From positions 160,001 to 224,000 of IMG/VR virus record IMGVR_UViG_3300037692_000137: 64,000 bases of DNA. One strand, 5' to 3'. The DNA comes from a virus (lineage: Duplodnaviria > Caudoviricetes). The translations under genes and the position numbers were made by a program. Positions within the stretch are counted from its first letter, which is position 1, and each line of letters starts with the position of its first letter. Positions 20,143 to 46,162 of the stretch are shown one piece after another. The notes below the pieces were generated by a model. The model was not told the origin of the DNA and ran no database searches. It was given only the letters and a program-made list of their open reading frames with translations.

Positions 20143-20203
20143 AATGTTCTCCTTTAAAGACCTCCAACAATGGTCTTGGTTTATGCTGGATGGATAATTG
20201 TTA

Positions 20204-20683: not shown

Positions 20684-20741
20684 AACTCAAACTCCTTTAG
20701 TTTTTTATTTATATTATGATGATTGTAAGTCACCACGTAGT

Positions 20742-21185: not shown

Positions 21186-21231
21186 TAATGTAACCTCCCT
21201 TGTACTATTTATTATAGAGGGTAGTTAATTA

Positions 21232-22221: not shown

Positions 22222-22239
22222 AAATTAATCCTCCTAGTA

Positions 22240-23205: not shown

Positions 23206-23210
23206 TATAG

Positions 23211-29628: not shown

Positions 29629-30480
29629 TTAAAACATTACAAGCGATTTTAGTATATCTAATAATGTCATTTTTTCATTTAGTCCTATAGCTTTTAGGTA
29701 AACTTCTCCAACAATCCAGCGTTCTTTTGAATAAAGCCTATCTTTATATAGTATTTTAACAAATACAATATTATCTGGGTATATCCTTACTATGTATATA
29801 TCACCGTCATTTAGTACGGTGCGCTCAATAAATGTGGTTTTACTTACTACATCACTTTGTTTAAAGCTTTTAAATGTTTTTTCACAATAAGCTATTTTCT
29901 CTTGTTCAAATTTAAGATGTTGTTTGTAACTAAAATATTTAGCTGTTGTATTGGTTGTTGTAGGTAATATAAGTATAAAGCTTATTATAGCTATCCAACC
30001 TTTAAAAGAAAGCCCTAAAATCCACCGTTTAATTCTATGTAAAACACGTTTATCACTAAGTTTAGCTACATTAGCAGTTGGTATAATTATGTTGTCAGGA
30101 GATATTTCACCTCTTAAATGTTTGTTGGCTATGACTATAAACGCCTTAGCATCAGGTGGCTTTACCATAACCATTTCTCTAGGTACCTTATGAAACTCTA
30201 CTAACTCTTTTACTACCTCTTCTGGTAAATTTCTAGATAATATTAGACATTTATCTGGATCAGCCCCTCCCCTACCAACAAGTTCTAAGCCACTCTCTCT
30301 ATTTTCTAGTATTGTGTCAATGATATACAAATCATAGTCATACCGCATCATACGTTCTCGGGCTTCTTTTAAACTACTAACTGAATGCACTACACAGTCG
30401 TATGGCGCCAGTAATCCTTTGTATAGTTGTATCATAGCTAAACTTTCTTCAGCTACCAGCACTGCCCTTTTATTGGCCAT
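29629..30480 (-). CDS. Receiver-domain protein with a TM segment
   Basis: VLVAEE...LYIIDT...LILS...VKP receiver pattern, then hydrophobic WIAIISFILIL. Confidence 0.65.
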   Translation of the reverse strand: MANKRAVLVAEESLAMIQLYKGLLAPYDCVVHSVSSLKEARERMMRYDYDLYIIDTILENRESGLELVGRGGADPDKCLILSRNLPEEVVKELVEFHKVPREMVMVKPPDAKAFIVIANKHLRGEISPDNIIIPTANVAKLSDKRVLHRIKRWILGLSFKGWIAIISFILILPTTTNTTAKYFSYKQHLKFEQEKIAYCEKTFKSFKQSDVVSKTTFIERTVLNDGDIYIVRIYPDNIVFVKILYKDRLYSKERWIVGEVYLKAIGLNEKMTLLDILKSLVMF

Positions 30481-30493: not shown

Positions 30494-31570
30494 TTATTTA
30501 AATATAATATCTAAATCATAATTACAGGCTTTTATAACTGCCAAGCAAGCCTCCACCACTTTATCGTCATACAATTTTCCAGAGCCCTTAGTTATCTCCT
30601 CCATAGCCACATTAATACCTAGAGACGCCCTATAAGGTCTATGCGATGCCATAGCTTCTACTGTATCTGCTACACCTAGTATCCTAGATTCTATAGATAT
30701 CTGATCCCCTCTTAAACCATTTGGATATCCAGATCCGTCTAGTCTTTCATGATGCTGTAATACCATTCTAGCTATTGGTGCTTCAAAAGGAATGTCACTA
30801 ATTATATTGTATCCTTCTATAACATGTTTTTTTAATAATTTAAACTCTGTCTCATTCAATTTGGTTGGTTTAACCAGTAGCTCTTGTGGCACATAAAACT
30901 TTCCTATGTCATGCAACATGCCAGCCAACTTTATATTTTCTATTTGTGTTTCATCTAAACCATAATACTCAGAAATTTTTACGGCCAGGGCTGTAACACG
31001 CTTTTGATGACCGGCCGTATATGGATCTCGTATCTCCATAGTTTTTGATAAGGCCTCTACAGTTTTATATAAAATACTACTTAAGTCTTTATTGGCCACT
31101 GCTAATTTTTCATTTGTTGCTGCTAAATTATCTGTTCTTTCTTTAACAAGCTTTTCTAGTTGTTGTTGATACATTTGGTTATCTCTAACCAAGTCATGTT
31201 TCTCTAAACACTGGGTTACAGAATGCTTTAATATTTCTAACGTTATTGGCTTAGTTATAAAGTCACAGGCACCTTTTCTCAGGGCCTCCACCACGAATTC
31301 ATTACATGTATTACCTGTTATTATAATAATCTGTGATGGAGGGTACAATGCTTTAATTTTATCCATTAAGTCTAGGCCCATAGCATCAGGAAGACCTATG
31401 TCTAATAGCACTATTGGTGGAGAGTACTTTTTAAACGCAACTATACCGTCCACCCCTTTAGTAGCATTAATTATATTATCGAACCCAATTACAGATAACA
31501 TTGTACTTATAACAGATAATATAGACTGGTCGTCGTCTATTACAAGTATAGGTTCTTTTATTCTTGTCAT
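30494..31570 (-). CDS. Response regulator with HD-GYP phosphodiesterase domain (RpfG-like)
   Basis: Receiver IDDD/LLDI/IITG/TKP; HD-GYP GHQKRV, LHDIGK, HHERLDGSGYP, VADTVEAM..RPYR. Confidence 0.93.
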   Translation of the reverse strand: MTRIKEPILVIDDDQSILSVISTMLSVIGFDNIINATKGVDGIVAFKKYSPPIVLLDIGLPDAMGLDLMDKIKALYPPSQIIIITGNTCNEFVVEALRKGACDFITKPITLEILKHSVTQCLEKHDLVRDNQMYQQQLEKLVKERTDNLAATNEKLAVANKDLSSILYKTVEALSKTMEIRDPYTAGHQKRVTALAVKISEYYGLDETQIENIKLAGMLHDIGKFYVPQELLVKPTKLNETEFKLLKKHVIEGYNIISDIPFEAPIARMVLQHHERLDGSGYPNGLRGDQISIESRILGVADTVEAMASHRPYRASLGINVAMEEITKGSGKLYDDKVVEACLAVIKACNYDLDIIFK

Positions 31571-31603
31571 TTAAAGTCTCCAAAAAATCTGTAGAGTGTT
31601 TAC

Positions 31604-31918
31604 TTACGGAGTAGTTAGTATAGACAATAACGTATCAATTTGTTCTATACTTAAACCTAATTTTATAGCTAGATCTGCTTTTGCTTCTAGCTTACTATCT
31701 TCTGTTACAGTACCGACCAGTAATAACTCATATACGGTAGGTGGTGACGGCACCGGATCTAAAGCGTTATGTGCTTCTTCTTCTGTATCAAACCAATACC
31801 ACCCGTCCATAGGGTAAGTATATGTTTCATGCAAGTCCGCGCGTAGTGTAAAAGTGGGGGCATACACAAAGTTGTCTGCTACTAATAGTATTTGGCTATC
31901 CATTTTATAGAACGACAT
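31604..31918 (-). CDS. Small fibre-associated protein
   Basis: YTYPMDGWYWFDTEEEA; follows the repeat protein. Confidence 0.55.
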   Translation of the reverse strand: MSFYKMDSQILLVADNFVYAPTFTLRADLHETYTYPMDGWYWFDTEEEAHNALDPVPSPPTVYELLLVGTVTEDSKLEAKADLAIKLGLSIEQIDTLLSILTTP

Positions 31919-31928
31919 AATAATCTCC

Positions 31929-34823
31929 TTATGATCCTGCTACTGTCCAACCTTTTGCAGTAGCTATAGATGGGGTATCTAAAGGTATACCGTGGTTCCC
32001 TGTTACAGTTATTGTTTGTCCGGATACGGTAGCTAAATTGGTATATAGTAAGTCTAAACTTTCGGAAGAAAGATTGCAGTTTGCTACTGTAAAAGTATAT
32101 TTAAACCCAATAGCCTCTACACATGCCAGATTTGTGCAGCCAAAAAACATATTAGAATAGGCTGAGGATGATGAGGCTTTGTTAACATTAATAGCAGGAA
32201 CCAAATTTAAAGTATTACAATTTTGGAACATGGTTCCAAAAGCAGTACCATTAGCTGTATTTAATAGTGGTATAGTTTGTAGTGATGAACAATTACTAAA
32301 CATACCAGTAAATGTTATACCTGCTACTGTATTTAATAAAGGTATAGTTTGCAAAGAAGAACAACCATTAAACATACTACTAAAGTTAGTACCTAATGTG
32401 GTATTTAATAAAGACATTACACGTAAAGAGCTACAATTAAAAAACATATAACTAAAGTTAGTACCTTTGGCCGTATTAATAACAGGCATTTCTTCTAAAG
32501 AATAGCAGCCATAAAACATGTAATTAAAATTAGTGACGTTAGCGGTATCCAACAAAGGTATGGTTGGTAAAGATGGGCAGTTTTTAAACATATAACTAAA
32601 AGTGGTACAGACTGAAGTAGTAAGTGTAGGTATTTTTTGTAGGGATAAGCAGTTTTCAAACATACTATTCATGACAGTAGCTTTACTAGTATCAATTAAA
32701 GGGATTGTTTGTAACGTAGAGCAATTAACAAACATATAACTAAAGTTAGTACCCTTAGATGTATTAAATAGAGGTATGGTTTTTAATGATAGGCAACCAT
32801 AGAACATGTTATTAAAATTGGTGCAGTTTGACGTGTCTAGTAACGGAAGTTCCTGAAGAGAAACACAATCATAAAAAGTTGAGCTAAAACTAGGGCATTT
32901 AGAGGTATTAATCAAGGGTATGGTGATTAATGAGTAGCAGCTATAAAACATGTTTATAAAATTAGTGCCATTACTTGTATTAATTAAAGGTATGGTTTGT
33001 AGAGATCTACAATTAGAAAACATGTAACTGAAGTTGGTAACTAAACTTGTATCAAGTAGTGGTACGGTAATTAATGAATAACAACTTGAAAAAGTGCTAG
33101 AAAAATTTACACAACTACTTGTATCCAAAAGAGGTATCTCTTTTAAAGAGTAGCAATATGTGAATGTATTACCAAAATTAGTTACATTAGTGGTATTAAA
33201 TAAGGGTATTTCAACTAATGAGTTGCAACCATTAAACATGTAATAAAAATTTGTTGCGTTGGCAGTGCTTAATAAAGGAACTATTTGCAAAGCAGTGCAA
33301 CCAGTAAACATATAACTAAAATCAATACCTAAAGATGTATCAAATAAAGTTATGGTTTGTAATGCCGGGCAGTCTTGAAACATGTGGCTAAAATTAGTGC
33401 AGTTATCAAAACTCATACTACCTGTAGTTAGTAGTGATCTACAGCCACTAAACATATACATACAATACGTACATGAGTTTGCTGTTATATCTGGAGCCGT
33501 CTGCAAAGAGTAGCAATATGAAAACATATATGAGGTAGTGGTAGCAACCGGTAGTACTATATTACCTATTTCAACTAAAGATGTGCAATGATCAAACATG
33601 TATTCAAGGGTTACAGCTGCAGATAAATCCAATTGAGGTACTGACAGTAGAGAGTAACAATTTTGAAACATTCTATCGAGAGTAACACCACTAACAAGAT
33701 TTATTGCTGGAATAGCCACTAATGATGTACAAAAGTTAAACATGTTACCAAACGCAATTCCAGTAGAAAGGTCCAATAAAGGTATGGTACCTAAACTATA
33801 GCAATTCATAAACATACTTGAAAATATAGTACCGTTTGAAGTGTCAATTAATGGTATTTCTTGTAAAGAATAGCAGTTATAGAACATAGAATTAAAATTA
33901 GTGACGTTAGCGGTATTAAATAATGGTATAGTAATAAGAGATATACAATTATAAAACATATTCAGGCAAGTAGTGCCGTTGGTTGTGTTAAATAGGTTAA
34001 CATCCTGCAATGATGTACAGGCGTAAAACATACTACTGAAAGTAGTACACGCTGTTGTATATAAATCTACACTTCTTAAACCACTGCAACTGTAGAAGAT
34101 ATAACTAAGGTCTGTAATATTGTTTTGGTATAACTTTACTTGTTCTAAACGTGAAAAACCTATGTATTGATTTCCTGCAGTATAACAACCTACCAGTAGC
34201 GTAGATAAATTTGCGCCAGCAATGGCTATATCAATAAAGCCTGAATCATACTTTTGTAGATTAGCTTTATTGTGTTTTCTATGAAGGTCTAATACAGTTA
34301 AACTTTGACCTGCTTGTGGTATAATAGTTACTATGGCCTGTTTATAGCCACGAGAACACTCAGTACCATCAAGATTAGCATTATTGTAATCATACTCATG
34401 ATAGGCCACTACACTGGAAGTATAGTTTTCTACAGTACCATCACCCCAATCTACAGTATAATCACCATCAGCAGTTAGTGCGCAAAAGGACTCATATTTA
34501 GATACCGCATGTAGCCCTACGAACTTCTCATCAGCACCTGATATAGTAGGTAACTCCAACCAGTCATCAGGTCTTTCCCAAGGCGTACCGCTAGTAGTTA
34601 AATTATCGTAAGATAGGGCATAGTTTGGGAATATTACAGGGTCTTTAGGTAGGGTTATACCGCTGCCCCCACCAGTACCAGAAATGGTTATATCGTCTAT
34701 TTTTCCAGCATAGGATCTAAAAGTAGTATCTACAGGAACAGTACCTCCTTTATTAATTATAGACTGTCTAATAAGATCCTTGGTATCATTTAAGTAAGTT
34801 AGTTTTTCGGCTATAGTAGTCAT
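31929..34823 (-). CDS. BspA/DUF285-type leucine-rich-repeat surface/fibre protein
   Basis: About 30 tandem 22-aa repeats (MF..C.SL..IPL..T...TNF); PKD-like WGDG motif. Confidence 0.85.
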   Translation of the reverse strand: MTTIAEKLTYLNDTKDLIRQSIINKGGTVPVDTTFRSYAGKIDDITISGTGGGSGITLPKDPVIFPNYALSYDNLTTSGTPWERPDDWLELPTISGADEKFVGLHAVSKYESFCALTADGDYTVDWGDGTVENYTSSVVAYHEYDYNNANLDGTECSRGYKQAIVTIIPQAGQSLTVLDLHRKHNKANLQKYDSGFIDIAIAGANLSTLLVGCYTAGNQYIGFSRLEQVKLYQNNITDLSYIFYSCSGLRSVDLYTTACTTFSSMFYACTSLQDVNLFNTTNGTTCLNMFYNCISLITIPLFNTANVTNFNSMFYNCYSLQEIPLIDTSNGTIFSSMFMNCYSLGTIPLLDLSTGIAFGNMFNFCTSLVAIPAINLVSGVTLDRMFQNCYSLLSVPQLDLSAAVTLEYMFDHCTSLVEIGNIVLPVATTTSYMFSYCYSLQTAPDITANSCTYCMYMFSGCRSLLTTGSMSFDNCTNFSHMFQDCPALQTITLFDTSLGIDFSYMFTGCTALQIVPLLSTANATNFYYMFNGCNSLVEIPLFNTTNVTNFGNTFTYCYSLKEIPLLDTSSCVNFSSTFSSCYSLITVPLLDTSLVTNFSYMFSNCRSLQTIPLINTSNGTNFINMFYSCYSLITIPLINTSKCPSFSSTFYDCVSLQELPLLDTSNCTNFNNMFYGCLSLKTIPLFNTSKGTNFSYMFVNCSTLQTIPLIDTSKATVMNSMFENCLSLQKIPTLTTSVCTTFSYMFKNCPSLPTIPLLDTANVTNFNYMFYGCYSLEEMPVINTAKGTNFSYMFFNCSSLRVMSLLNTTLGTNFSSMFNGCSSLQTIPLLNTVAGITFTGMFSNCSSLQTIPLLNTANGTAFGTMFQNCNTLNLVPAINVNKASSSSAYSNMFFGCTNLACVEAIGFKYTFTVANCNLSSESLDLLYTNLATVSGQTITVTGNHGIPLDTPSIATAKGWTVAGS

Positions 34824-34828
34824 ATTAT

Positions 34829-35077
34829 TTATTCACCATTTATGGCATCAAGTGCAGCACCAATATCGCCTATAACTGACGCACTTACACCTATCTGTGC
34901 CCAAACATTAGGGCTTATACTTTTTAGCATCCACCTTGTATCATCGCTAAGTTGGTGCACATCTTTACCTACATCATCCGCTACTAAATCTGTTGCTGCT
35001 AACCTATCCGCCGCATCAGCGAATAGTCTAATGTATGGATCAATGCTTATGGTGTTAGAATATTTTGTAAAAGCCAT
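34829..35077 (-). CDS. Hypothetical protein
   Basis: GGGGG RBS; operon context. Confidence 0.55.
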   Translation of the reverse strand: MAFTKYSNTISIDPYIRLFADAADRLAATDLVADDVGKDVHQLSDDTRWMLKSISPNVWAQIGVSASVIGDIGAALDAINGE

Positions 35078-35090
35078 CTATAACCCCCTA

Positions 35091-35429
35091 TTATATTAAT
35101 ATGTTTACTTTTATACTATCGGTTCCAGAAGATAGTTTTATTACCTTTGTTTGTGTGTCAGAGTAATTTTGTACTGTATAGTCAGTATTATATCTTACCT
35201 CGTACAGTCCGTCTTCAGGTATAAGCTCTAAAATTTGTACTAGCCTAATCCCATCTGTATCTGACGCGTGTGTAGCGGTTACTTCTTGATTTTGACTAAC
35301 CCCACTAAAGGTAGTTTGTACTACAGAGACAGAGGAACCTCCTATAAAACTGTCTTCGCCAAAGTTATCCACAGCTATGGTGTTAATCTCTGTTATTTCA
35401 TTGTTTAGTACTTGTGAATAATTTACCAT
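35091..35429 (-). CDS. Small structural protein, paralog of the next two ORFs
   Basis: MVNYS...; ends IKVNILI. Confidence 0.7.
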   Translation of the reverse strand: MVNYSQVLNNEITEINTIAVDNFGEDSFIGGSSVSVVQTTFSGVSQNQEVTATHASDTDGIRLVQILELIPEDGLYEVRYNTDYTVQNYSDTQTKVIKLSSGTDSIKVNILI

Positions 35430-35442
35430 GTAGTTATCCTCG

Positions 35443-35784
35443 TTAAGCTAATAAGATATTAACTTTAATAGTAGCAGTACCAGAAGACACTTTAGTTACT
35501 GTTGTTATAGTATCAGACTTATTTGACACAGTATAGTTAGCAACGTCTTGTAAGTGGTATAAGCCACTACCTACTTGTAGTTCATAAACCTGAGCTATTA
35601 TGCCTGAAGCATTACTGCCATGTGTTATTATGACGGTGTCATTTTGTCCTATGTTACTAAACACATTTTGTAGTGTACTAGAAGCAGTTCCTCCGTCGCC
35701 AATAAAACTGTCAGCCCCGTATTCAGTTGCCACAGTATTTATTTCTTTTATGTAGTTATTAGTTATTAATGAGTAATTAAGCAT
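35443..35784 (-). CDS. Small structural protein, paralog
   Basis: MLNYS...; ends IKVNILLA. Confidence 0.7.
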   Translation of the reverse strand: MLNYSLITNNYIKEINTVATEYGADSFIGDGGTASSTLQNVFSNIGQNDTVIITHGSNASGIIAQVYELQVGSGLYHLQDVANYTVSNKSDTITTVTKVSSGTATIKVNILLA

Positions 35785-35804
35785 AATGTATTCTCCAAAG
35801 TATA

Positions 35805-38447
35805 TTAAGGCAATATAGTATTAACTTTAACATTACTACTACCAGCACTAGTTTTTACTATTTTTGTGGTTGTACTAGATGTATTTGTTATTGTGTAGTC
35901 TGAGTTCATTTTAAGCGTATAGAACCCATATTCATCGTAGTTTAAAGTTACTTGGTCTAAACTGGGTGTTACTGTAGAATTGCTGGTATTAAATAGAAAA
36001 GCAAAGTCCAAAAAAGGTTCTGTGGTTACATAGTAGTTTGCTAATGCTGTCTCTAATTCAGTAGTAGTATTCCATCCAGCTGTATTAGCTATACCGGGAT
36101 GAGTAACAAATGAGGAGCCATTCCAGTTTTTCCAAGTTACTCTACCATCAAAGGATACTAAGCAGCCAAGAGAGGTATCGCTGGGCTTTAAAGTGTCTAT
36201 GGCTAGTGAGTTTATTTGAACTACGTGCGCTAGATTTATTTGATTATCATCAGAGGTGGTTACATATTTAGGTATAATGGTGTATCCCATATTAAGTTCT
36301 AACATTTCTACCTCTGATATTTGTAGTGTGTCGTTGGTAGTAGCATTCCGGTTACATGCAGTAATGTTCAGTCTGTACCACCTATAGGCAGTAGTATTGG
36401 AAAAAGTGTAGGCTTTTATCTGGCTATAAGAGGAGGGCTCCCCCGTTCTAGTGTCTAAGGTTATCCAAGTTCCATTTGTTATACCATCAGTTGAATCGTT
36501 AGATGCTTGAAAGGTCCAATCTTTTGGTAGCATGTCAGCATAAGTATTTGATATACCAGTTAAAGTATATCTAACTATTATTTTTTCATTTCCGGCGCCA
36601 AAGTCATATCCCAGGATAGCAGGTAGTATGCTTTGATACCAGTACCATGAAGTACCATTGCTATGTCCCCCTCTAATATTGTCAAAAGCTTTAGCCGGAG
36701 TATTAGTACCGTATACCTCACCATTTCCAAAAGCTTTAGTGCCATCAATACATACGTCAACTGTATATAAATAAGGTATTCCCAAAAAGCCCGCAGTATA
36801 ACCGTCTGGCACGCTGTAAGTAAAAGGGCTCCCCCCAAAGTTTGCAGTAAGTGTAGTTAGTGGTTTATTATCTCTACCAGAAACCGCTACAAAATAAGGG
36901 GCATTTTTTGTAAATGTAGCTGTATATTCAAAAACACCGTTTATGTAATAAGTTACTTGTTTGTTGTCCGCGTCTATAGCTAACCCCACTGTGCTACCTG
37001 TACCAAATATGGCCGTTCCGGTTTTTACTACGGCAGCACCTACATATATAGCGCTATTTTGTGCGTCTAAACAAGTAGCACTAGTTGCCGTAACTGAACT
37101 CATCAAATTATTGTTTAAAACAGCATCAGTAGAAACAATACCAACAAAAGAGTCGTAAGTAGCTGATGCCTGATCACAATGTATTTCACAATAGTATTTA
37201 CCTGTTGTTACACTTAAAAGTGTAGTTACTATATCATTATCAGGCACATTGGCAGTAAGGTTACCATTACTTAGAACAACACTAGCACCCTTTGTTAAAG
37301 GACTAAAGGTGGTAGGCGCTATACTAGGCACCAAATTAAGTTGTGCTATTGCGTCTACAGTAGTTGAATCAGACACATATAAAATATTACTATCTGAGTT
37401 TAAAAATAAACTAGCCACAGAGCTCACATACTTACCTACTGGTAAGGATATTAAACCATAAACGGCCGTGGTTATATCCCATGGCGTAGTTAATACACAT
37501 TGATACACGTATAGGCTTAAGTTACCACCAATAAATAATGTGGTTCCGTCATTAGATAAACAAAAGGCCACTACTCCGCCATCTATCGAGTTTGCATTAA
37601 AAGCACCTATAAAAGTTATAGTACTTAAATCCCACGGAGTGGTTAAAGTATATTGACTTATAATATCAGTAGAAATACTTACAGAGTATAACCTTGTTCC
37701 ATCAGCATTAGCCCACAGCTCAACAGAGGTTACGGCTTCTCCTTGTGTGCCCATAGTGTAGTAGGTAACTTCTGTGGTAGCTGTGCTAATATCCCATGGG
37801 GTACTTAAATTTAATCTTTTTATTCTGTCTGGTGTTGTGTTGGTGGTTGCAACCAATACTATAGTACCGTCCTCATTTATTACTATACCTTCGACATCTA
37901 CTATGTCATATGACTTATTAGTATAGCTAATAGTGGTTATATCCCATGCCGTGCTCAAGGCATACTGATGTATTTTATCAGTGATTTTATCTGCTACATA
38001 AACCTTAGTTCCATCAGCACTAATACAAAAGTCACTATGTGTTGTCGCCTGTGTTATAGCCCCTTTTCCTATGCAAGTTGCGATTGGCAAGTAAATCCCG
38101 CCGGAGCCCGTTGACCGTTTTAGTTTAACCATACCACCAACAAACTCAGTGCCGCTTACAGTGTCTTCTTGTATAAACTGATCCGCATCAATTAAGTCAA
38201 AGTCTAGTGACGTGTTAACTATATTATCTGTCGCCGGTATCAGTTCATAGACCTGTGTTATACGTTTATCTAAAGTATCCTCAGCATGCGTTACAGTTGC
38301 TATACCGCTTTGTGTAACATTATTATAAGCATTACTAATCATATTAACAGAACCACTATCGGAAGTAAAACTACTAGCTCCTTCTAGTACTGCTTTATCG
38401 TTAGCAGTCTTTATTTGGGTGTTGATTAATTCTGAATAATTGACCAT
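35805..38447 (-). CDS. Receptor-binding/adhesin protein: beta-propeller + SPRY + discoidin-like domains
   Basis: Repeated LSTPWDIST blades; SPRY TGKYYCEI...VGLAIDAD; F5/8C-like PKDWTFQASND...YRWYRLNIT. Confidence 0.75.
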   Translation of the reverse strand: MVNYSELINTQIKTANDKAVLEGASSFTSDSGSVNMISNAYNNVTQSGIATVTHAEDTLDKRITQVYELIPATDNIVNTSLDFDLIDADQFIQEDTVSGTEFVGGMVKLKRSTGSGGIYLPIATCIGKGAITQATTHSDFCISADGTKVYVADKITDKIHQYALSTAWDITTISYTNKSYDIVDVEGIVINEDGTIVLVATTNTTPDRIKRLNLSTPWDISTATTEVTYYTMGTQGEAVTSVELWANADGTRLYSVSISTDIISQYTLTTPWDLSTITFIGAFNANSIDGGVVAFCLSNDGTTLFIGGNLSLYVYQCVLTTPWDITTAVYGLISLPVGKYVSSVASLFLNSDSNILYVSDSTTVDAIAQLNLVPSIAPTTFSPLTKGASVVLSNGNLTANVPDNDIVTTLLSVTTGKYYCEIHCDQASATYDSFVGIVSTDAVLNNNLMSSVTATSATCLDAQNSAIYVGAAVVKTGTAIFGTGSTVGLAIDADNKQVTYYINGVFEYTATFTKNAPYFVAVSGRDNKPLTTLTANFGGSPFTYSVPDGYTAGFLGIPYLYTVDVCIDGTKAFGNGEVYGTNTPAKAFDNIRGGHSNGTSWYWYQSILPAILGYDFGAGNEKIIVRYTLTGISNTYADMLPKDWTFQASNDSTDGITNGTWITLDTRTGEPSSYSQIKAYTFSNTTAYRWYRLNITACNRNATTNDTLQISEVEMLELNMGYTIIPKYVTTSDDNQINLAHVVQINSLAIDTLKPSDTSLGCLVSFDGRVTWKNWNGSSFVTHPGIANTAGWNTTTELETALANYYVTTEPFLDFAFLFNTSNSTVTPSLDQVTLNYDEYGFYTLKMNSDYTITNTSSTTTKIVKTSAGSSNVKVNTILP

Positions 38448-38554
38448 TAGTATTATCTCCTATTTAAACACACATCTTTTTATTATTGTTATTACAGATT
38501 TTTTAACACGCACCCAATTAACCACATGTACGACCACCATGTTCTAAAAGCAAG

Positions 38555-38821
38555 TCAGTGGTCGTGGTCTAAAAGCAAGTCATTAATAAACTGGAACCAC
38601 TGCTCCTCCACGGACGCCAGTATGATACCAGGCACAGGTCCAAATGCCTTAACCATCAGTTCCCTTTCTTTATTGGTGGTATGCAACAGGTTGTTTATAC
38701 TGAAGTATAAATCCATCAAATCAGGTGTATCCATACCTTTAATAATTCTAGTTAAACAGTTGTTACATATAGCCTTGTTATCAGGGTTATTAGCTTTACA
38801 ATGTCTGTCTATGCACTTCAT
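38555..38821 (-). CDS. Hypothetical protein
   Basis: AAGGG RBS; Cys motifs. Confidence 0.5.
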   Translation of the reverse strand: MKCIDRHCKANNPDNKAICNNCLTRIIKGMDTPDLMDLYFSINNLLHTTNKERELMVKAFGPVPGIILASVEEQWFQFINDLLLDHDH

Positions 38822-38909
38822 AATATGTCCCTTAAGTTTCTATAATATACATAGGATAGTTTATTAAAAAACAAGGCTCTTTATCATAATATATAAAACA
38901 CTAATAACA

Positions 38910-39152
38910 CTACCATATAAGTAGATTACTACTATATTTATACATGTGCATTCTCTTAAAATCTAATTCATAAGTATCCACTATATTACTTGGTAAAACG
39001 TGTAACAACTGTTTTAAAGCTAAAGTAGCATAACAGTCTGCTGACACCAGCTGTTCTAGTGTAACACAGCTATTATAAACCCGTCTAACTTTTTTTATCA
39101 AAGCCAAACTTTTTTTATACTCTAATTTATCCTTATTTCTTACGATAAACAT
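38910..39152 (-). CDS. Hypothetical protein
   Basis: GGAGG RBS. Confidence 0.5.
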   Translation of the reverse strand: MFIVRNKDKLEYKKSLALIKKVRRVYNSCVTLEQLVSADCYATLALKQLLHVLPSNIVDTYELDFKRMHMYKYSSNLLIW

Positions 39153-39188
39153 AAACCCCTCCCCTCACAGACTACAAGTTATTTTAAT

Positions 39189-39407
39189 TTAGTGTAGTAT
39201 AATATTTACTAATGTACACCTCTCTTTAGAGTAGTTAGCTTCTAAGCAATCCATTTCTAGCTTCTTACATCTACACTTGTAAACAACCTTGAACATCTTA
39301 TTACTATCTACTATTTCCCATGCGTCTTGTCTACTACCATAAGGACACCTAAAGAAGTTATCCATCCTATCAACTCTTTTACTTATTAGTGTTTCATCTA
39401 TTGCCAT
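39189..39407 (-). CDS. Hypothetical protein
   Basis: GAGGAG RBS. Confidence 0.5.
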   Translation of the reverse strand: MAIDETLISKRVDRMDNFFRCPYGSRQDAWEIVDSNKMFKVVYKCRCKKLEMDCLEANYSKERCTLVNIILH

Positions 39408-39662
39408 GTGTACTCCTCTATGTTATCTTTATCATGGTCGATGGGTTTTATAGCGCCCGAAATTATTTTTTACAATAAAAAGGGCAGTGCTTTTTACACT
39501 ACCCTTTCAGGCTTCCGATATTGCCTTTGTTACACACCTTTATCACAAGTTACTCCACTCCCAGCCGTTTTTATTTTAGTTTTAATTCACTCACTGCCTA
39601 ATAGGTTAGTTTATAATAATATAGTATACTATCCATAGTATCTACCATATTAAAGTAGACAT

Positions 39663-39984
39663 GTTAAAATCGTTATATACTATTAAAATCGTTATATACT
39701 ATTCGATAGATAATCTAGTAGACAACTTATATGCTCATATATTTATACCATCGATAAATTAGTTATACTGATTATACTGGAGTTGTAGTATACCTTACTA
39801 TAACTTTATACCCATTATCACACTAATCTACCTTATAACTAAGACTACACCACTATACTATAATACTACATTAATGGCAGTGCTGGCTTACTCTACTCTA
39901 GTTTACTAGTTTATTGTGTTACTAGTTTATATAATACTCTACGGTAGGACTACTCTACTCTACTCTACTCTACTCTACTCTACT
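39663..39984. repeat. Direct repeat and (TACTC)n microsatellite in the divergent intergenic gap
   Basis: TTAAAATCGTTATATACTA x2 near 39663; (TACTC)6 at 39951-39980. Confidence 0.8.
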
Positions 39985-40272
39985 ATTATATTACTATACT
40001 ATCATGGTCATCTATTTATAGGTCCGCAAACTATTTTATTGTATACACCTACATACAAACGCTATCGTTGTTATGTAGTTGAAATTTAAATAAAATATAG
40101 CCAAAGGGACCCATATAGTAAGTCATGTAGAAAGGTATATATTACAGACTTATAGGGCCCCCTTATGCGCATTTTTGATTTTTACCCTGAGTAATGATGG
40201 TTTGTTTTTTACCTGTATTGTGAAGGATTACCCTTCTATTTATTAATCTTTAGTCCTGTAAGGAGATTTGTC

Positions 40273-40545
40273 ATGTCTACATCTATTATTTTAGCGCGGC
40301 CTTCAAACCTCTCAAATACTTTCTCTTCCTCCGATGGTAAAATCACTGCTATCGCTGGCCGTTGTGGTGAATTTGACAATGCCCACGTTCTGGAGGTTAT
40401 CACCCCTAAGGGCACCTACCACCTTTCGGGGGACAGGCTTGGTCAGAATCTTACCCGTTACACTGGCTATGCCCCAGAACACTTCCTTATAGCAAAGTAC
40501 GATAAAGGTTCTATTATCCTTAGCTGGACACCTTATCGTAAGTAA
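40273..40545 (+). CDS. 90-aa hypothetical protein, possible paralog of 40942..41214
   Basis: AAGGAG RBS; TPKGTYHL motif. Confidence 0.65.
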   Translation: MSTSIILARPSNLSNTFSSSDGKITAIAGRCGEFDNAHVLEVITPKGTYHLSGDRLGQNLTRYTGYAPEHFLIAKYDKGSIILSWTPYRK

Positions 40546-40570
40546 TTATAAGGTATACGCCTTGTACTAA

Positions 40571-40636
40571 TGTCGAAACCCCGCTATGAGGGGGCCTGTT
40601 AGGACTGGACCCCCTAATACTGATGATGATAGACCA
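40571..40636 (+). ncRNA. Type II hammerhead ribozyme, copy 1 (C at position 16.1)
   Basis: UGUC GAAA CCCC..GGGG CC UGUUAGG..CCUAAUA CUGAUGA U GAUA GACCA. Confidence 0.75.
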
Positions 40637-40669
40637 ACTACTAACCTTTTATCCTGTAAGGAGGATGCC

Positions 40670-40906
40670 ATGAACATTCAACACATCTGTAAGTCCCAAA
40701 CTAATTGTAAAGCACAGCCTGCTGCCAATTGTGCTGGTTGTTTCTACTACGACACCGTAAAAGAAACTGCTATATGTGTATGCTGTAACCTGGCGGCTGA
40801 CCAAGGCAGTGAGTACTGTGGCTTCTGTAATCCAGTCTACCAAGAGCGTTTCAGGAAAGCAGTTATCCGTGAATCCGCTGGCCTTCATAGTGAGTATGAT
40901 ATTTAG
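40670..40906 (+). CDS. Cys-rich small protein
   Basis: Start re-called at MNIQHIC after AAGGAGG; many CxxC. Confidence 0.65.
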   Translation: MNIQHICKSQTNCKAQPAANCAGCFYYDTVKETAICVCCNLAADQGSEYCGFCNPVYQERFRKAVIRESAGLHSEYDI

Positions 40907-40941
40907 TCATCTCAACAACCTTTTATCCTAGGAGGATAACC

Positions 40942-41214
40942 ATGAGCAAACACGTCGCAAAACAACAGCACTCTTTCCCTTTAACAGCAGTAAAGACTGT
41001 AGGTAAACAGTCAGTTCTATTTGAGACCACTCCTGCTGGGTTCTCAGTAGCTTGGTGCGACAGTACTCCTGATAGAGTTACCCTCACAACCCCTAAGGGT
41101 AAGTACACTCTTATCAAGCACAGAACATTGGGCTACTACCACGGTGTTTGTGGTGGGTTTAAGGTTCAGGTATCACTTAAAGTCCAGGTGGGTGAGCTTC
41201 GAGCCTGGTATTAA
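40942..41214 (+). CDS. 90-aa hypothetical protein
   Basis: GGAGG RBS; TPKGKYTL motif. Confidence 0.65.
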   Translation: MSKHVAKQQHSFPLTAVKTVGKQSVLFETTPAGFSVAWCDSTPDRVTLTTPKGKYTLIKHRTLGYYHGVCGGFKVQVSLKVQVGELRAWY

Positions 41215-41218
41215 CCAC

Positions 41219-41282
41219 TGTCGAAACCCCTCTATGAGGGGTCTATTAGGGCCGGCCTCCTAATATTGATAATGACAGGCCA
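41219..41282 (+). ncRNA. Type II hammerhead ribozyme, copy 2 (U3-A8 variant)
   Basis: UGUC GAAA CCCC..GGGG UC UAUUAGG..CCUAAUA UUGAUAA U GACA GGCCA; loop-I GGCC pseudoknot. Confidence 0.85.
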
Positions 41283-41318
41283 ACTAACACAACCTTTTAT
41301 CCTGATGGAGGGATACCC

Positions 41319-41420
41319 ATGAAAGAATTACTTACAGCAGATGAGTCTTTTGAGAATGTAGCACATATACTTGAAGTATTAGCCCTGGCAGATGAGGCTG
41401 ATTTTGAGTTTATTAATTAA
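41319..41420 (+). CDS. 33-aa acidic peptide
   Basis: GGAGG RBS; MKELLTADESFENVAHILEVLALADEADFEFIN. Confidence 0.55.
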   Translation: MKELLTADESFENVAHILEVLALADEADFEFIN

Positions 41421-41490
41421 CATTTTTTTGCCAGATCTATGTGGCGTAGCATTACCCTATACAGCTGCTAAGCAGCAAAGGAGCAGTATT

Positions 41491-41691
41491 ATGTTTATTT
41501 GTGAGGTATGTGGCTGTGCTTTTGGCGGAGACTGGTCGCCGGTATGTGATAAACAAACGTGCTATGATGCCTTCATGCAGCATGCCTGCACTGATGAGGA
41601 GAACTGGGGGCCTGAGGACGGTGGATGTTGCCCTTGTAACAGCCCCAGTTGTGATGGCACTTGTGCTAAACAACAAGGAGAACTACTATGA
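41491..41691 (+). CDS. Cys-rich small protein
   Basis: AAGGAG RBS; start re-called. Confidence 0.6.
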   Translation: MFICEVCGCAFGGDWSPVCDKQTCYDAFMQHACTDEENWGPEDGGCCPCNSPSCDGTCAKQQGELL

Positions 41692-41897
41692 ACTGTATTA
41701 AAAACTGTGTTAAATGTGTCGAGTCTGAGTGTGCTTCCCACCCACTTAAAGCACAACTTAAGAAGTGTACTCGTTGTGGAGCTATGGAGGTATTAACAAT
41801 CACAGAGTATGGGGCCACAGCTTCCTGCCCTAACGATAAGCACCCCGCTCGTATCCTTAGCGCAGCCAGCAACGTATGGGCGGCTATGGGTTGCTAA
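41688..41897 (+). CDS. Cys-rich small protein
   Basis: AAGGAG RBS; overlaps the previous stop. Confidence 0.6.
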   Translation: MNCIKNCVKCVESECASHPLKAQLKKCTRCGAMEVLTITEYGATASCPNDKHPARILSAASNVWAAMGC

Positions 41898-41947
41898 CTA
41901 CCAATGGGCCAGGACCACATGACTGACCCAAACTAAGGAGTTATAGT

Positions 41948-42235
41948 ATGAAGATAAACAACGCATTAAAAAGACTCATTGAAGAGGCCTTATCAGAGGC
42001 TAAGGCGGCCTCTACTGAGTACGTTGTAGTAAGATGCTTGTTCAGGCACGCTCTTTGTCGCAAAACACGCCTTTCTAAGGGCCAGGCTACATGGGTATGG
42101 CACAACATAGTATACGTTGACCCTAAGCATGTATGTGGCAGGGAGCAGCGTGGTGAAATAAGTAGGTCTGACCAATGCGGGTTCAGATGTATCTCGCCTT
42201 TAGGCAACTGTCCTGACTTTAAACTTTCGCTCTAA
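41948..42235 (+). CDS. Hypothetical protein
   Basis: AAGGAG RBS. Confidence 0.6.
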   Translation: MKINNALKRLIEEALSEAKAASTEYVVVRCLFRHALCRKTRLSKGQATWVWHNIVYVDPKHVCGREQRGEISRSDQCGFRCISPLGNCPDFKLSL

Positions 42236-42247
42236 GGAGACATCACC

Positions 42248-42499
42248 ATGACTGCTAATACTGTCACTACTACCAATGAACATCCGCCGTTTGTAACCAC
42301 TGGCAGCGGTGTTGGCCCATCATTTGTAACCACCTATGAATGTATCATAGGATGGAAAGCTGTTTTGATTACTTGGGACGCTGAGTTTGGTTATATTCCA
42401 GATACTACTGCCTACTTCGCTCATCCAACTGAAGACGTTGCTATCGAGGATGCTAAGCAGTGGGCGGAAGCCGAAGGAATTGAGTACCGTCCGCGCTAA
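42248..42499 (+). CDS. Hypothetical protein
   Basis: AAGGAG RBS; ends A.E.AKQWAEAEGIEY. Confidence 0.65.
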   Translation: MTANTVTTTNEHPPFVTTGSGVGPSFVTTYECIIGWKAVLITWDAEFGYIPDTTAYFAHPTEDVAIEDAKQWAEAEGIEYRPR

Positions 42500-42538
42500 A
42501 TAGTTTATTTATCTCTAACCTTTTTCAGGAGAATTACC

Positions 42539-43300
42539 ATGAAATCTATTAAATCAATCGCAGTAGTAGCAATCATTGTTCTTTCACTCGTAGCCTGTAA
42601 ACAAGAGGCTATGGTTAGTGCTCCTCAGCCCGCGGTAGTAGTTGGTAACGTATACACCACTGATGTTCTGCGTTATGAGGGCGACATTGTTAATAACATG
42701 CCCAATGGTAAGGGTGTTATCACCTTCATCTGGGGTGATACTTATGCCGGAGATGTTGTCAACGCACTACCTAATGGCGGAGGTGTTATGCGTTATGTGG
42801 ATGGCAGTATCTACCGCGGGCAGTGGAAGGACGGCCTGCGTGACGGGCATGGCAGGTTTGACTCATCTGATGGCAGCCGGTATAATGGTTCCTGGGTAGC
42901 AGGGAGTAAGCATGGCCAGGGAACACTTACAGTGGATGGCCTTAGCCAGACGGGTACCTTTGAGAAAGACCAGCCCAAACGTGTTGTGGTTTTGGATACT
43001 AATACCTGTATCGAAGGTAACTGTCGCACAGGCTATGGTATTAAACGCACAGCAGACGGTGTTTACTCTGGTGACTTCGAAAACGGTGACTTCCATGGAC
43101 AAGGCACATTTAAGTATAGCAATGGTGATACCTACAAGGGCAGCTTTCTCAAGGGACACATGTTTGGTGCTGGAAGGCTTACCAGCCCCAATAACCATTG
43201 TGTAACCATGGGTATCTGGGAAAGAGGTAAATGGGTTGAGGGTAACAGACGTTACGATGACGGTACACCTGAGTACATTCTTATGAGACACATTCTGTAA
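42539..43300 (+). CDS. MORN-repeat lipoprotein
   Basis: Lipobox LVAC; YxGxWxxGxxHGxG repeats; C.EGNC..GYG. Confidence 0.85.
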   Translation: MKSIKSIAVVAIIVLSLVACKQEAMVSAPQPAVVVGNVYTTDVLRYEGDIVNNMPNGKGVITFIWGDTYAGDVVNALPNGGGVMRYVDGSIYRGQWKDGLRDGHGRFDSSDGSRYNGSWVAGSKHGQGTLTVDGLSQTGTFEKDQPKRVVVLDTNTCIEGNCRTGYGIKRTADGVYSGDFENGDFHGQGTFKYSNGDTYKGSFLKGHMFGAGRLTSPNNHCVTMGIWERGKWVEGNRRYDDGTPEYILMRHIL

Positions 43301-43390
43301 TTGTCGCTTCTCTCTGCTTATCTCCCGTTAGGTAAGCAGGGGTTAGGAGACAAGAACAATAATAACCCTATCATGAAAAGGAGAAATATC

Positions 43391-43588
43391 ATGACCGCAC
43401 AATTACGTTGGTTCGAGCGCATTCATCAGGCCGTTGTTGTTACACAAGATAAAGTGTGTAAATATCAAATTCACAATATGGAGGAGTTGGAAGTAGCCAT
43501 TAAAGTATTAGAAAGTATGTTCAGTACTAGTGCTAAGCTGGTTAGTTCTAAGAAGCCAGATGTGTTCATATTTAACTTCAACAAATAA
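43391..43588 (+). CDS. Hypothetical protein
   Basis: AAGGAG RBS; start re-called. Confidence 0.55.
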   Translation: MTAQLRWFERIHQAVVVTQDKVCKYQIHNMEELEVAIKVLESMFSTSAKLVSSKKPDVFIFNFNK

Positions 43589-43769
43589 AAGGAGACACAC
43601 GCCATGTCATTACGTTCAATTGTATGTACGTGTCGCCGCACCCAGACAAGCCACACTTTCTTGTCGATTGGGCGACTATAAATAGGCATTAGGCCCAAAG
43701 CGCCCCTATCTATACCAGGTAGGGGGTTGCTCTCTGTGTTAGTTTATTAACTTTATATAAGGAGATTGT

Positions 43770-44054
43770 ATGTCATATATCACACTTATTCATTGGACTA
43801 TGCGCATATTTAAGAGTTCTTCTGTTCTTACTGTGCATGAAAAACAGATTATTTATGAAGTGCCTTTTTCCGGTTTATATGACGCTAAGTACATGCGTTA
43901 TTTATTAATAAATAGGCTTATTCCAAAAGGAGAGTTAAGCGAATTAGATAAGTACATAAAAGAGGTACTTGTAGATGAATGGGATAAAGCATTAACAATA
44001 AGGGTGTGTGTTATTATACGCTATAACGCTGTCATAGGAGGTAGTCATGCCTAA
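43770..44054 (+). CDS. Hypothetical protein
   Basis: AAGGAG RBS. Confidence 0.55.
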   Translation: MSYITLIHWTMRIFKSSSVLTVHEKQIIYEVPFSGLYDAKYMRYLLINRLIPKGELSELDKYIKEVLVDEWDKALTIRVCVIIRYNAVIGGSHA

Positions 44055-44235
44055 ACAAAAAGGAGACACGTTGGTGCTTTATCAAAACATGTCAGACGGT
44101 CATTGGGTTAGGGGGTACTGCCTTTCGCCCGCATGTGCATGTAGTAACTACAGGAAAACACATTGTGACAATGGAACATGTCGTTTCTATAAAGAAGAGT
44201 TTATTTCTATTAAACAGAAAGGGGGTAGCTCATGA
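44047..44235 (+). CDS. Small Cys-containing protein
   Basis: GGAGG RBS. Confidence 0.55.
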   Translation: MPKQKGDTLVLYQNMSDGHWVRGYCLSPACACSNYRKTHCDNGTCRFYKEEFISIKQKGGSS

Positions 44236-44400
44236 CTATAAGCACAGTAGCAAGGTGCTCTGTATGTAAACAATTAAAGAGATATTTCTATTTCTCTTTA
44301 TCTGAGCAGGCTAAACTAAAACCAGCCGTGTGTAATGACTGTTTTGACTCAGTCAATGTACCTTTATTCACAATTATTGGCGTTGGGGGGGGGTAATATT

Positions 44401-44607
44401 ATGAGCACGTTCTTTATCACGATGGGTGTTGCTGCAGATGGGGGCTTTCAGCCGGTAAAAGCTGTAAAGCTGCCTAATAGCCGGATAGCTGTAGTAAACA
44501 GGAGCCCAATTACTACGCACTGTCCAGAGTTAGCAGAGGAGATAGCAGAGGCTTGGGCAAAAGAGGAAGGCTTAATCTACAACAAGAAGGAGAATGACTA
44601 TGTTTAA
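44401..44607 (+). CDS. Hypothetical protein, C-terminus similar to 42248..42499
   Basis: LAEEIAEAWAKEEGLIY. Confidence 0.55.
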   Translation: MSTFFITMGVAADGGFQPVKAVKLPNSRIAVVNRSPITTHCPELAEEIAEAWAKEEGLIYNKKENDYV

Positions 44608-44830
44608 ACTCGACTCTCAGAACATACTTATTGGTGCTGTTATTGTAACAATTATCTGGTTCTTCAATTACATATTGGGTTCCATGCTGATTATTATAGC
44701 AGCAAGTGTTATCGGGTTGTTTATGTTTAACTGGCTTGGTAGTATATTCCGTAAGGATACAACAAAGCCCAAAGATAAGGCAAAAGACCCAACAGACTTG
44801 TCAGGGGCATTTAAGGAGACTAAACCATGA
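44594..44830 (+). CDS. Small membrane protein
   Basis: Two hydrophobic segments; AAGGAG RBS. Confidence 0.6.
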   Translation: MTMFKLDSQNILIGAVIVTIIWFFNYILGSMLIIIAASVIGLFMFNWLGSIFRKDTTKPKDKAKDPTDLSGAFKETKP

Positions 44831-45003
44831 AGATAGTAAAGGTAGTTTGCTCGTGGTGTATTGCTGAGGGGTTTCCTGTGACCCCTTTACATGAAATAGA
44901 GGTGCCTGATGATGTTGAAGGAGATTCACACGGTATCTGCGAGTACCACGCCTCAGAGTTGGAAGAGATGCTGACGTTATACATGGAGTATGATGAGGAG
45001 TAA
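44827..45003 (+). CDS. 58-aa metal-binding protein (below cutoff)
   Basis: VCSWC...SHGICEYH motif; AAGGAG RBS. Confidence 0.6.
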   Translation: MKIVKVVCSWCIAEGFPVTPLHEIEVPDDVEGDSHGICEYHASELEEMLTLYMEYDEE

Positions 45004-45084
45004 AGATATCAAACTTAATTACAAAGGAGACAGCAAAAATGTTCACATAACCTAAGGGAGGTGGTGCCTATGAGATAAGCGTTA

Positions 45085-45175
45085 GGGTTTAACGTGAAGG
45101 GCAAACCCGGAGCAATCCGGGGACGCAAAGCTATGGGCCCTCATTGTGAGGGCAGCCAGGTTACCAAACAAACCG
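45085..45175 (+). promoter_or_regulatory. c-di-GMP-I (GEMM) riboswitch
   Basis: GAAGGGCAAACC-CGGAGCAATCCG-GGGACGCAAAGC..GGGCCCTC..GAGGGCAGCCAGGTTACC follows the GEMM layout; G at the position-20 equivalent. Confidence 0.92.
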
Positions 45176-45193
45176 AATTACAGGAGAATTACC

Positions 45194-46162
45194 ATGAAGA
45201 AATCAATCGTTATTTCCGCAATCGTTTCTCTTATTTCTATTATGTCTACCTCATCAGCACAGGGTGAACTCATTGATGGTCGTTTTACTGTTCTGGATAC
45301 CACTACCAATTACGAATGGCAGAAACACCCCTTCGTGTATACCAATTGGTATGACGGTAAGGACCAATGTGAAGACCTCGTTATGGATGGGCATGATGAT
45401 TGGGTTATGCCTATGCCCGGCCATTTGAGAACAATCAAGGGCGTTATCCAGTACCTGGCATACAACTACATGTACTACCACACAATCAAAGAGTATTCAG
45501 CTACGGCGGACTACTCATACAACATTGATACTGGTGTTGTTGGTGTTGTATCCAAATACAATCTTGGCAACGTTCGTTGTATGCGGGATGCTTCGGCTGA
45601 TATGGCTGAGGTTATTACCAGCGTAACTATCCAGAAAACCGGATATTACACGATGGCCACTTCCATTGCCAACGTAACTGGCATGGTATCAGCATTTGTT
45701 GATGGTGTTCTGGTGGCTTCTTACAATACCGACTATATCAACACACCTGTTGGTATTGGCAATCTTACCGCCGGCCAGAATCTGGAAGTTACGGTCAATG
45801 GCGACAAGGCCGAGGGCATCAACGAAATCGATTGGCAGAGTTGGGATATGACCTTTTCTGCCGGTGACATCGAAATCTATGTCGAAGACCCTCCGGTACC
45901 CAACAATTGTGTTGCCGCTGAGCCTACTGAAGAACTGCCCCCGCCGGTGATTGTTGAGGTGGGTATTACCAAGGCGCAAGTACTCAACAGTAAGAACAAG
46001 AGTACTTTAACGTTGGTATTGAACGTCCCTGAACAGATTACTATGGGAGACGGCCCCGCAGACTTCACGTTCTTCGTTTACAAGAATGGTTCAGATGTTG
46101 CGTATGTAGGTTCCACCGTAATGACACACAAGGGGAATGGTAACATCATTTCCAATAAGTAG
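45194..46162 (+). CDS. Secreted DUF1566 (Lcl C-terminal) domain protein
   Basis: Signal peptide; TVLDTTTNYEWQK, WYDGKDQCEDL..GHDDWVMP, VRCMR; AGGAG RBS before 45194. Confidence 0.8.
   Translation: MKKSIVISAIVSLISIMSTSSAQGELIDGRFTVLDTTTNYEWQKHPFVYTNWYDGKDQCEDLVMDGHDDWVMPMPGHLRTIKGVIQYLAYNYMYYHTIKEYSATADYSYNIDTGVVGVVSKYNLGNVRCMRDASADMAEVITSVTIQKTGYYTMATSIANVTGMVSAFVDGVLVASYNTDYINTPVGIGNLTAGQNLEVTVNGDKAEGINEIDWQSWDMTFSAGDIEIYVEDPPVPNNCVAAEPTEELPPPVIVEVGITKAQVLNSKNKSTLTLVLNVPEQITMGDGPADFTFFVYKNGSDVAYVGSTVMTHKGNGNIISNK

Follow-up and report, generated by a model that had tools for sequence, protein, structure and literature searches.

A predicted c-di-GMP-I riboswitch and a receiver-fused HD-GYP protein encoded together in an uncultured large sediment phage

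In Xanthomonas, the hybrid sensor kinase RpfC, whose input is a membrane domain sensing the diffusible signal factor (DSF), signals to RpfG, a phosphodiesterase of cyclic diguanylate (c-di-GMP) that consists of a receiver (REC) domain fused to an HD-GYP domain. In phages, riboswitches had been regarded as great rarities, and only two phage examples of the c-di-GMP-I class have been known, both from C. difficile prophages (McCown et al. 2017, PMC5473149, where they are credited to Sudarsan et al. 2008). HD-GYP enzymes have been recorded across jumbo phage groups, where they are proposed to act constitutively as counter-defence to host systems that signal through cyclic oligonucleotides (Iyer et al. 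2021, Viruses 13:63, PMC7824862, section on these enzymes), and phage HD-GYP enzymes have so far been read only in this way. Here, we describe a phage genome carrying a c-di-GMP-I riboswitch, a REC-HD-GYP response regulator and a hybrid sensor histidine kinase. The window analysed is a stretch of 64,000 nucleotides, bases 160,001–224,000 of the 234,228-bp IMG/VR virus record IMGVR_UViG_3300037692_000137, which is 89% complete according to CheckV; coordinates refer to the window unless stated otherwise. An initial annotation had proposed that this stretch may harbour a complete c-di-GMP write/read circuit operating as a timer or feedback loop. The reading that we favour, by a slight lean, is that two functional and separable modules share the host c-di-GMP pool, and that cross-talk between them is a by-product of their combination and not a co-evolved device.

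The aptamer is located at positions 45087–45169 on the plus strand (Rfam clan match 45091–45169) and was scored at 75.1 bits by the RF01051 covariance model (E = 5.6e-16), against a curated gathering cut-off of 35, which confirms the riboswitch of the initial annotation. An Rfam scan detected no second c-di-GMP-I clan aptamer or similar element elsewhere in the 234-kb genome. In the proposed secondary structure, P1 is formed by 45087–45090 and 45094 paired with 45165–45169, P1a (45106–45121) is capped by a GCAA tetraloop of the GNRA type at 45112–45115, and P1b spans 45129–45162. Alignment to the model placed G45100, A45127 and C45164 at the equivalents of G20, A47 and C92 (Vc2 numbering), which we take, from crystal structures, to be the ligand-contacting positions; all ligand-contact and tertiary-contact nucleotides are retained. 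Rfam clan competition was won by the GGC variant model RF03167, and this label was rejected, since its score was lower (66.3 bits, cut-off 59) and the letters were wrong: the two conserved G's of that model, in GACGCGAA and UGCC, are both A in the window (GACGCAAA and UUACC), as in canonical sequences. Therefore, the aptamer was filed as canonical c-di-GMP-I and is a predicted binder of c-di-GMP. On the same strand, 1.4 kb upstream of the riboswitch, we also identified a Pistol self-cleaving ribozyme (43662–43731, 65.3 bits, cut-off 34.5), and a partial Pistol match of 33 bits occupies the syntenic place in a relative (L010:854–900); this ribozyme might set the 5' end of the riboswitch mRNA.

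The gene following the aptamer, P0002, encodes a protein of 322 amino acids (aa) at 45194–46162 on the plus strand, as delineated from its translation, Pfam matches and orthologues located behind aptamers. The start at 45146 given in the list of open reading frames (ORFs) was rejected because it falls within the aptamer, and the true start is the ATG at 45194, 24 nt from the aptamer end. It is preceded by a Shine–Dalgarno (SD) sequence read as AGGAGA at 45182–45187 (plus strand), 13 nt past the aptamer 3' end, which is kept in relatives. No terminator was found between the aptamer and this ATG, and since the start codon is so close to the aptamer, the riboswitch most likely exerts its control at translation initiation. 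Two candidate switching structures were discarded: an SD/anti-SD hairpin within the coding region is not conserved in relatives, and a long-range GGUGGU/AUUACC helix is absent from the distant cassette L124. Folding favours neither an ON nor an OFF response to the ligand.

Ahead of the aptamer, at 45054–45078 on the plus strand, sequence and conservation revealed a purine-rich box with a strong SD-like core (GGGAGGTGG) and a mini-ORF, which in the window starts with an ATG at 45070, comprises 2 codons and ends with a TAA at 45076–45078, 8 nt ahead of the P1 5' strand. The box consensus, AAGG(G)AGGTG(G/A)TGCCTATG, is a nearly perfect long Shine–Dalgarno site that occurs once in the 234-kb genome and is conserved in the window, in the related loci L006, L012 and L124, and also in the riboswitch-less locus L010. 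Across the cassettes, the ATG follows the box by 7–8 nt, the mini-ORF has 2–5 codons, and its stop codon lies 7–9 nt before the P1 5' strand; a ribosome terminating at the mini-ORF would cover this strand.

The N-terminus of P0002, MKKSIVISAIVSLISIMSTSSAQG, is a Sec-type signal peptide. Residues ~25–140 match Lcl_C/DUF1566 (PF07603) with 27.0–29.2 bits (E 2e-7 to 6e-6), below the gathering threshold of 34.9. A phmmer search of 1.8 billion proteins revealed 636 relatives of this same region, which are mainly repeats, in up to 14 tandem copies, within giant surface proteins, and the related protein P0006 carries an unmarked precomputed Pfam match to Lcl_C. Considering the sub-threshold score on the one hand, and the E-value of 2e-7, the P0006 match and the 636 relatives on the other, we named the domain Lcl_C-like. 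Thus, of the "secreted DUF1566 protein" initially annotated behind the riboswitch, the signal peptide and the riboswitch ahead of it hold, and the domain name requires this qualification. The AlphaFold model of P0002 has a mean predicted local distance difference test (pLDDT) score of only 43, and ~24 in the N-terminal domain, which is too poor for a fold search; it suggests two beta-rich domains at ~142–233 and ~255–310. An Atlas feature search returned Lcl_C leads only, all below 0.9. In our reading, P0002 is a lectin- or adhesin-like protein that is predicted to be secreted. The riboswitch sits among small ORFs of unknown function, and further upstream, at 42539–43300 (plus strand), lies the gene of a 253-aa protein with MORN repeats and a signal of the lipoprotein type (…LSLVAC); it is conserved upstream of the cassette in L006–L010.

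Near-identical DNA was found in sediment metagenomes and small shares of the window in groundwater metagenomes, and a DNA search of GenBank phages gave no DNA-level match to the window. The source is an uncultured, apparently non-clostridial lineage of large sediment phages. The relatives retrieved from ENA and JGI were compared as loci and are mostly contig fragments. The closest of them is a contig of 236,830 bp, to which the orthologues of P0002, of the HD-GYP gene and of the kinase gene were all assigned on the grounds that 236,830 bp is the length of the longest contig for each orthologue alike.

A cassette of aptamer and homologous gene is present in L006–L009, L012, L124 and L125, with a spacing between aptamer and start codon of 17–25 nt. 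The orthologues with 81–87% identity to P0002 (L006–L009 and L012, with L011 covered in part) retain the aptamer, and even in front of the distant homologues P0174 (32% identity, L124) and P0198 (28%, L125), an aptamer of the c-di-GMP-I clan lies 17 nt ahead of the start codon; L125 also carries a homologue of the 318-aa gene that comes next in the window. In an alignment of five aptamers, 99% of the P1a/P1b helix cells are standard pairs, and 10 of the 20 helix pairs have changed on both sides across the five cassettes, compared with pairing of 28–49% in slid controls. The riboswitch–gene cassette, shared by five phage contigs down to 28% protein identity, is accordingly old and under structural selection. 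The aptamer at L125:942–1026 (33.5 bits, best on the UAU variant) has U-A in place of the canonical G19-G20. The A at the G20-equivalent column is a letter that we assume to be linked with GEMM-I RNAs of the 3'3'-cyclic GMP–AMP (3'3'-cGAMP) type, and this aptamer may recognise another ligand, for example 3'3'-cGAMP.

For the 59%-identity orthologue P0006 (L010), no aptamer was found even at permissive thresholds. Since the box that precedes the aptamer elsewhere is still present there, its absence is best read as a secondary loss. One could argue from this loss, in which the gene was kept, and from the failure of folding to reveal an expression platform, that the aptamer in the window is itself a decaying relic, acquired together with the gene and now devoid of any regulatory function. 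This is very improbable, given that every ligand- and tertiary-contact nucleotide is retained, that half of the helix pairs show compensatory changes across the five cassettes, and that the spacing between aptamer and start codon is conserved.

The second module comprises the gene of P0001, a 358-aa RpfG-type REC-HD-GYP response regulator and predicted phosphodiesterase, at 30494–31570 on the minus strand. Pfam assigned it HD_5 (E = 4.6e-41) and Response_reg (E = 4e-21) domains, and it retains intact HDIGK and HHERLDGSGYP motifs, together with D13/D14, D57, T85 and K107 of the receiver. The genome encodes no other HD_5 protein. The presence of an eraser alongside the riboswitch, as initially annotated, is therefore confirmed, with its activity predicted. 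Orthologues with 94%, 74% and 73% identity are encoded on related phage contigs, while the nearest cellular homologues, in Desulfobacterales, Sedimenticola, Spirochaetes and others, share at most 49% identity and are annotated as RpfG-family regulators. Directly downstream, at 29629–30480 on the minus strand, is the gene of a 283-aa protein with a receiver domain, a transmembrane (TM) segment and an unknown C-terminal domain. Its Response_reg match is weak (28–30 bits); in the alignment it has E11/E12, D55, S82 and K107, followed by a hydrophobic helix at ~158–178. The possibility that this neighbour is a hidden cyclase was rejected, since it consists of REC and TM parts. A REC-TM gene of 280–287 aa always follows the HD-GYP gene in L005, L013, L014, L015 and L148.

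The HD-GYP operon is flanked by Ig-like genes and by two large genes on the minus strand, one for a 964-aa protein with nine DUF285 (BspA-like leucine-rich) repeats (31929–34823) and one for an 880-aa protein with SPRY and tail-protein similarity (35805–38447); both products are probably fibre or receptor-binding proteins. On the contig of a P0001 homologue with 48% identity, a tail sheath gene adjoins the HD-GYP gene. A late, structural-module location of the HD-GYP gene is plausible.

Outside the window, at genome positions 19,683–23,306 on the minus strand (L123:2684–6307), domain matches identified a hybrid sensor histidine kinase of 1207 aa, P0126, in which a signal peptide, an SBP_bac_3 domain, membrane segments around a CKNCH (CxxCH) motif, PAS and GAF domains, an SHDFNN H-box, HATPase_c and a receiver follow one another; an orthologue with 69% identity is encoded in the 236,830-bp relative. 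The genome has three receiver domains, in the kinase, the HD-GYP protein and the REC-TM protein. As the phage encodes its own hybrid histidine kinase, the HD-GYP protein would be a regulated output and not the simple late "reset" initially envisaged. GGDEF, EAL and PilZ domains were not detected anywhere in the 234,228-bp record (for GGDEF at E <= 0.01), and the positive controls were. Of the complete write/read circuit proposed in the initial annotation, the HD-GYP eraser and the riboswitch thus share one genome, and the "write" half finds no counterpart in it, the neighbouring receiver protein included.

HisKA and HATPase_c kinases were also found in 4 of 7 other HD-GYP viral records longer than 100 kb (G051, G060, G066 and G070; L144–L147), three of them hybrid with PAS sensors, compared with none of 5 HD-GYP-negative records of this size (one-sided Fisher p ~0.07); the link between HD-GYP and true histidine kinases in huge phages is suggestive only. 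No description of this combination in huge phages was found in the literature searched.

The identity of the second messenger hydrolysed by P0001 bears on a different explanation of the enzyme. The best solved relatives are V-cGAP3 (5z7c, E = 8.5e-35), which is specific for 3'3'-cGAMP, and the c-di-GMP enzyme PmGH (4mcw, E = 5.7e-33); since both kinds of enzyme match at similar E-values, c-di-GMP and 3'3'-cGAMP are not told apart by sequence. P0001 could accordingly be a counter-defence enzyme that destroys immune signals such as the 3'3'-cGAMP of cyclic oligonucleotide-based antiphage signalling systems (CBASS), unrelated to a riboswitch that reads host c-di-GMP. Such a role for jumbo-phage HD-GYP is proposed in section 3.4.8 of Iyer et al. 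2021 (PMC7824862), and it would agree with V-cGAP3 being the best match in the PDB and with the many large viral records that have HD-GYP and no riboswitch. The score gap between V-cGAP3 and PmGH is negligible, however, and the closest cellular homologues are annotated as RpfG-family response regulators. Known anti-CBASS nucleases such as Acb1 are unregulated, whereas the intact phospho-acceptor receiver of P0001, its REC-TM partner and the sensor kinase encoded by the phage are in keeping with a signalling enzyme whose activity is regulated. We consider counter-defence an unlikely explanation for P0001.

To what extent the two modules belong together was addressed by three surveys. In the first, 48 records were collected from IMG/VR by two pattern scans; 24 of them had true RF01051 matches, and the 24 without one served as chance controls. 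Among the 24 riboswitch records, HD-GYP occurred only in a 6-kb fragment, and GGDEF/EAL lay next to the riboswitch in one provirus. HD-GYP, EAL and GGDEF were all absent from the 8 riboswitch phages with a completeness of at least 90%. In the second, 3 of 21 HD-GYP viral records (G064, G065 and G068; L115–L117 and L149) had a c-di-GMP-I riboswitch, directly upstream of HD-GYP, ~240 nt ahead of a 267-aa HD-GYP gene. The presence of a TraG/VirD4 coupling protein, a MobL relaxase and serine recombinases indicates that these are conjugative elements filed as viruses, and they were rejected as phage pairings. None of the 7 HD-GYP records longer than 100 kb had a c-di-GMP-I or -II riboswitch. In the third, HD-GYP, the riboswitch, the target gene and the kinase were all absent from an outgroup of 13 relatives chosen by a PhoH protein with ~50% identity, among them a record of 228 kb with 86% completeness. 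The riboswitch and HD-GYP recur together in the 236,830-bp closest relative, and the surveys yielded no other such pairing in true phages. A single 69.8-kb relative contig (L010/L013) has HD-GYP, REC-TM and the target gene and lacks the aptamer. Judging from these comparisons, the pairing appears to be rare and restricted to this one sub-lineage, and either module can exist alone; the expectation that RF01051 and HD-GYP would co-occur across phages was not borne out as a general rule.

From the first survey, the number of IMG/VR records with a c-di-GMP-I riboswitch is at least two dozen, and the riboswitch usually lies ahead of genes of secreted or adhesin-type proteins. In a complete phage of 237 kb (G022:C1:221962–222149, L101), two tandem c-di-GMP-I aptamers precede several genes of membrane or secreted proteins; no HD-GYP, EAL or GGDEF was found in this phage. 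Among other phages or proviruses, the riboswitch precedes a CAP-domain protein and a protein with an ice-binding-like adhesive domain in G023 (L102) and G035 (L103), a VWA/Cna_B/SpaA pilin-like adhesin in G024 (L110), and a Cu_amine_oxidN1-domain protein in G005 (L108).

The initial annotation had assumed a coupled device, in which the riboswitch reads the biofilm or planktonic state of the host early in infection to gate the secreted protein, and HD-GYP, produced later along with the tail proteins, clears c-di-GMP and flips the switch, creating a temporal window. The intact state of both parts in this genome and in its closest relative, and their restriction to one sub-lineage with absence from the 13 outgroup relatives, would fit such a co-adapted timer or feedback loop, as would the position of HD-GYP among tail-fibre-like genes, with a 48%-identity homologue beside a tail sheath gene, and of the riboswitch among small ORFs. 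However, one relative keeps HD-GYP and the target gene after loss of the aptamer, the two modules are generally found apart in phages, there is no writer, and the receiver domain together with the phage kinase implies activity that depends on a signal and not on a clock. The comparative evidence therefore does not support a coupled timer, which we regard as improbable.

In the reading of two separable modules, the first is an old and mobile cassette consisting of the purine-rich box with its mini-ORF, the canonical c-di-GMP-I aptamer, the SD sequence and the gene, through which the host c-di-GMP level would set the production of the Sec-exported, adhesin-like P0002. The second would be a phage two-component output that is formed by the REC-HD-GYP protein with its REC-TM partner and is probably phosphorylated by the phage's own 1207-aa hybrid kinase; upon an envelope or redox cue, the HD-GYP domain would hydrolyse c-di-GMP made by host cyclases. 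Every one of these parts is present, intact and conserved. Any action of the enzyme on c-di-GMP at a time when the cell contains the riboswitch mRNA would inevitably cause cross-talk. Such cross-talk through the shared pool is plausible; a selected timer is unproven. A chain from input (kinase) through eraser (HD-GYP) and reader (aptamer) to output (P0002) is possible. That it works as one full pathway, in which a periplasmic or redox-sensing kinase acts on REC-HD-GYP, host c-di-GMP is lowered and the riboswitch sets the adhesin-like protein, seems to us rather doubtful.

Several observations weigh against the favoured reading. The two modules have the same narrow distribution, limited to one sub-lineage, which could reflect co-selection instead of independence, and since most relatives are contig fragments, absences there are weak evidence. 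No HPt domain was found in the whole record and the kinase gene is far from the HD-GYP gene, which makes the phosphorelay a conjecture. The closest solved HD-GYP to P0001 is a 3'3'-cGAMP-specific enzyme, with the c-di-GMP enzyme PmGH at a similar E-value. When the five cassettes were folded (minimum free energy and ensemble) with the aptamer free or enforced, the accessibility of the SD and AUG showed no consistent change. The support is computational throughout.

Apart from the two modules, a Group I intron (86 bits) was detected in the window at 20426–20645 on the minus strand.

In the literature searched, we encountered no phage described as pairing a c-di-GMP riboswitch with a phosphodiesterase or kinase of its own, and the surveys gave no other case in a true phage, so that, as far as searched, the pairing is undescribed, as the initial annotation had held. 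Here, a single phage encodes a predicted eraser with a fused receiver and a predicted RNA reader of the same messenger, along with a sensor kinase. Should these parts prove to communicate, the phage would clearly exemplify a virus that manipulates the signal by which its host decides between sessile and motile life and also reads it. If the full pathway were true, the virus would make an environment-dependent decision through the lifestyle messenger of its host, and, given the pairs of kinase and HD-GYP in four further huge phages, the first two tiers of the pathway would represent a general, undescribed trait of such phages. Even without cross-talk, the c-di-GMP-I riboswitches of at least two dozen IMG/VR records and the huge phages in which HD-GYP is often accompanied by histidine kinases stand as findings.

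Compared with RpfC/RpfG, this phage likewise encodes in one genome a REC-HD-GYP protein with all catalytic motifs and a hybrid kinase with a C-terminal receiver. The differences are that the system is phage-encoded, that the kinase inputs are SBP_bac_3, CxxCH, PAS and GAF, that HPt was not found, and that the genes lie apart, the partnership being putative. With the jumbo-phage HD-GYP enzymes of PMC7824862 it shares an HD-GYP phosphodiesterase from a phage of more than 200 kb; receiver fusions, phage kinases and riboswitches are not mentioned in the passages of that paper covered by our search. The HD-GYP domain of P0001 aligns with V-cGAP3 (5z7c), PmGH (4mcw) and PA4781 (4r8z) over residues ~160–345 (E 1e-19 to 1e-35), and as these enzymes have differing substrates or preferences, likeness to them does not assign that of P0001. 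The conjugative elements G064, G065 and G068 also combine a c-di-GMP-I aptamer and HD-GYP on one mobile element; there, unlike in this phage, the riboswitch controls HD-GYP in cis. The aptamer agrees with the c-di-GMP-I (GEMM-I) class, as represented by Vc1 and Vc2 of Vibrio cholerae and by the C. difficile prophages, in its three helices, GNRA tetraloop, G20/A47/C92 and location in a 5' leader on the gene strand. A downstream secreted, adhesin-like gene is common to both, and occurrence in phages has precedent. The cassette differs from this class in its very short spacing between aptamer and start codon, in having no recognisable expression platform, and in its conserved SD-like box and mini-ORF. 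In contrast to the C. difficile prophages, the riboswitch is carried here by a large, apparently non-clostridial sediment phage that also encodes an HD-GYP protein and a sensor kinase.

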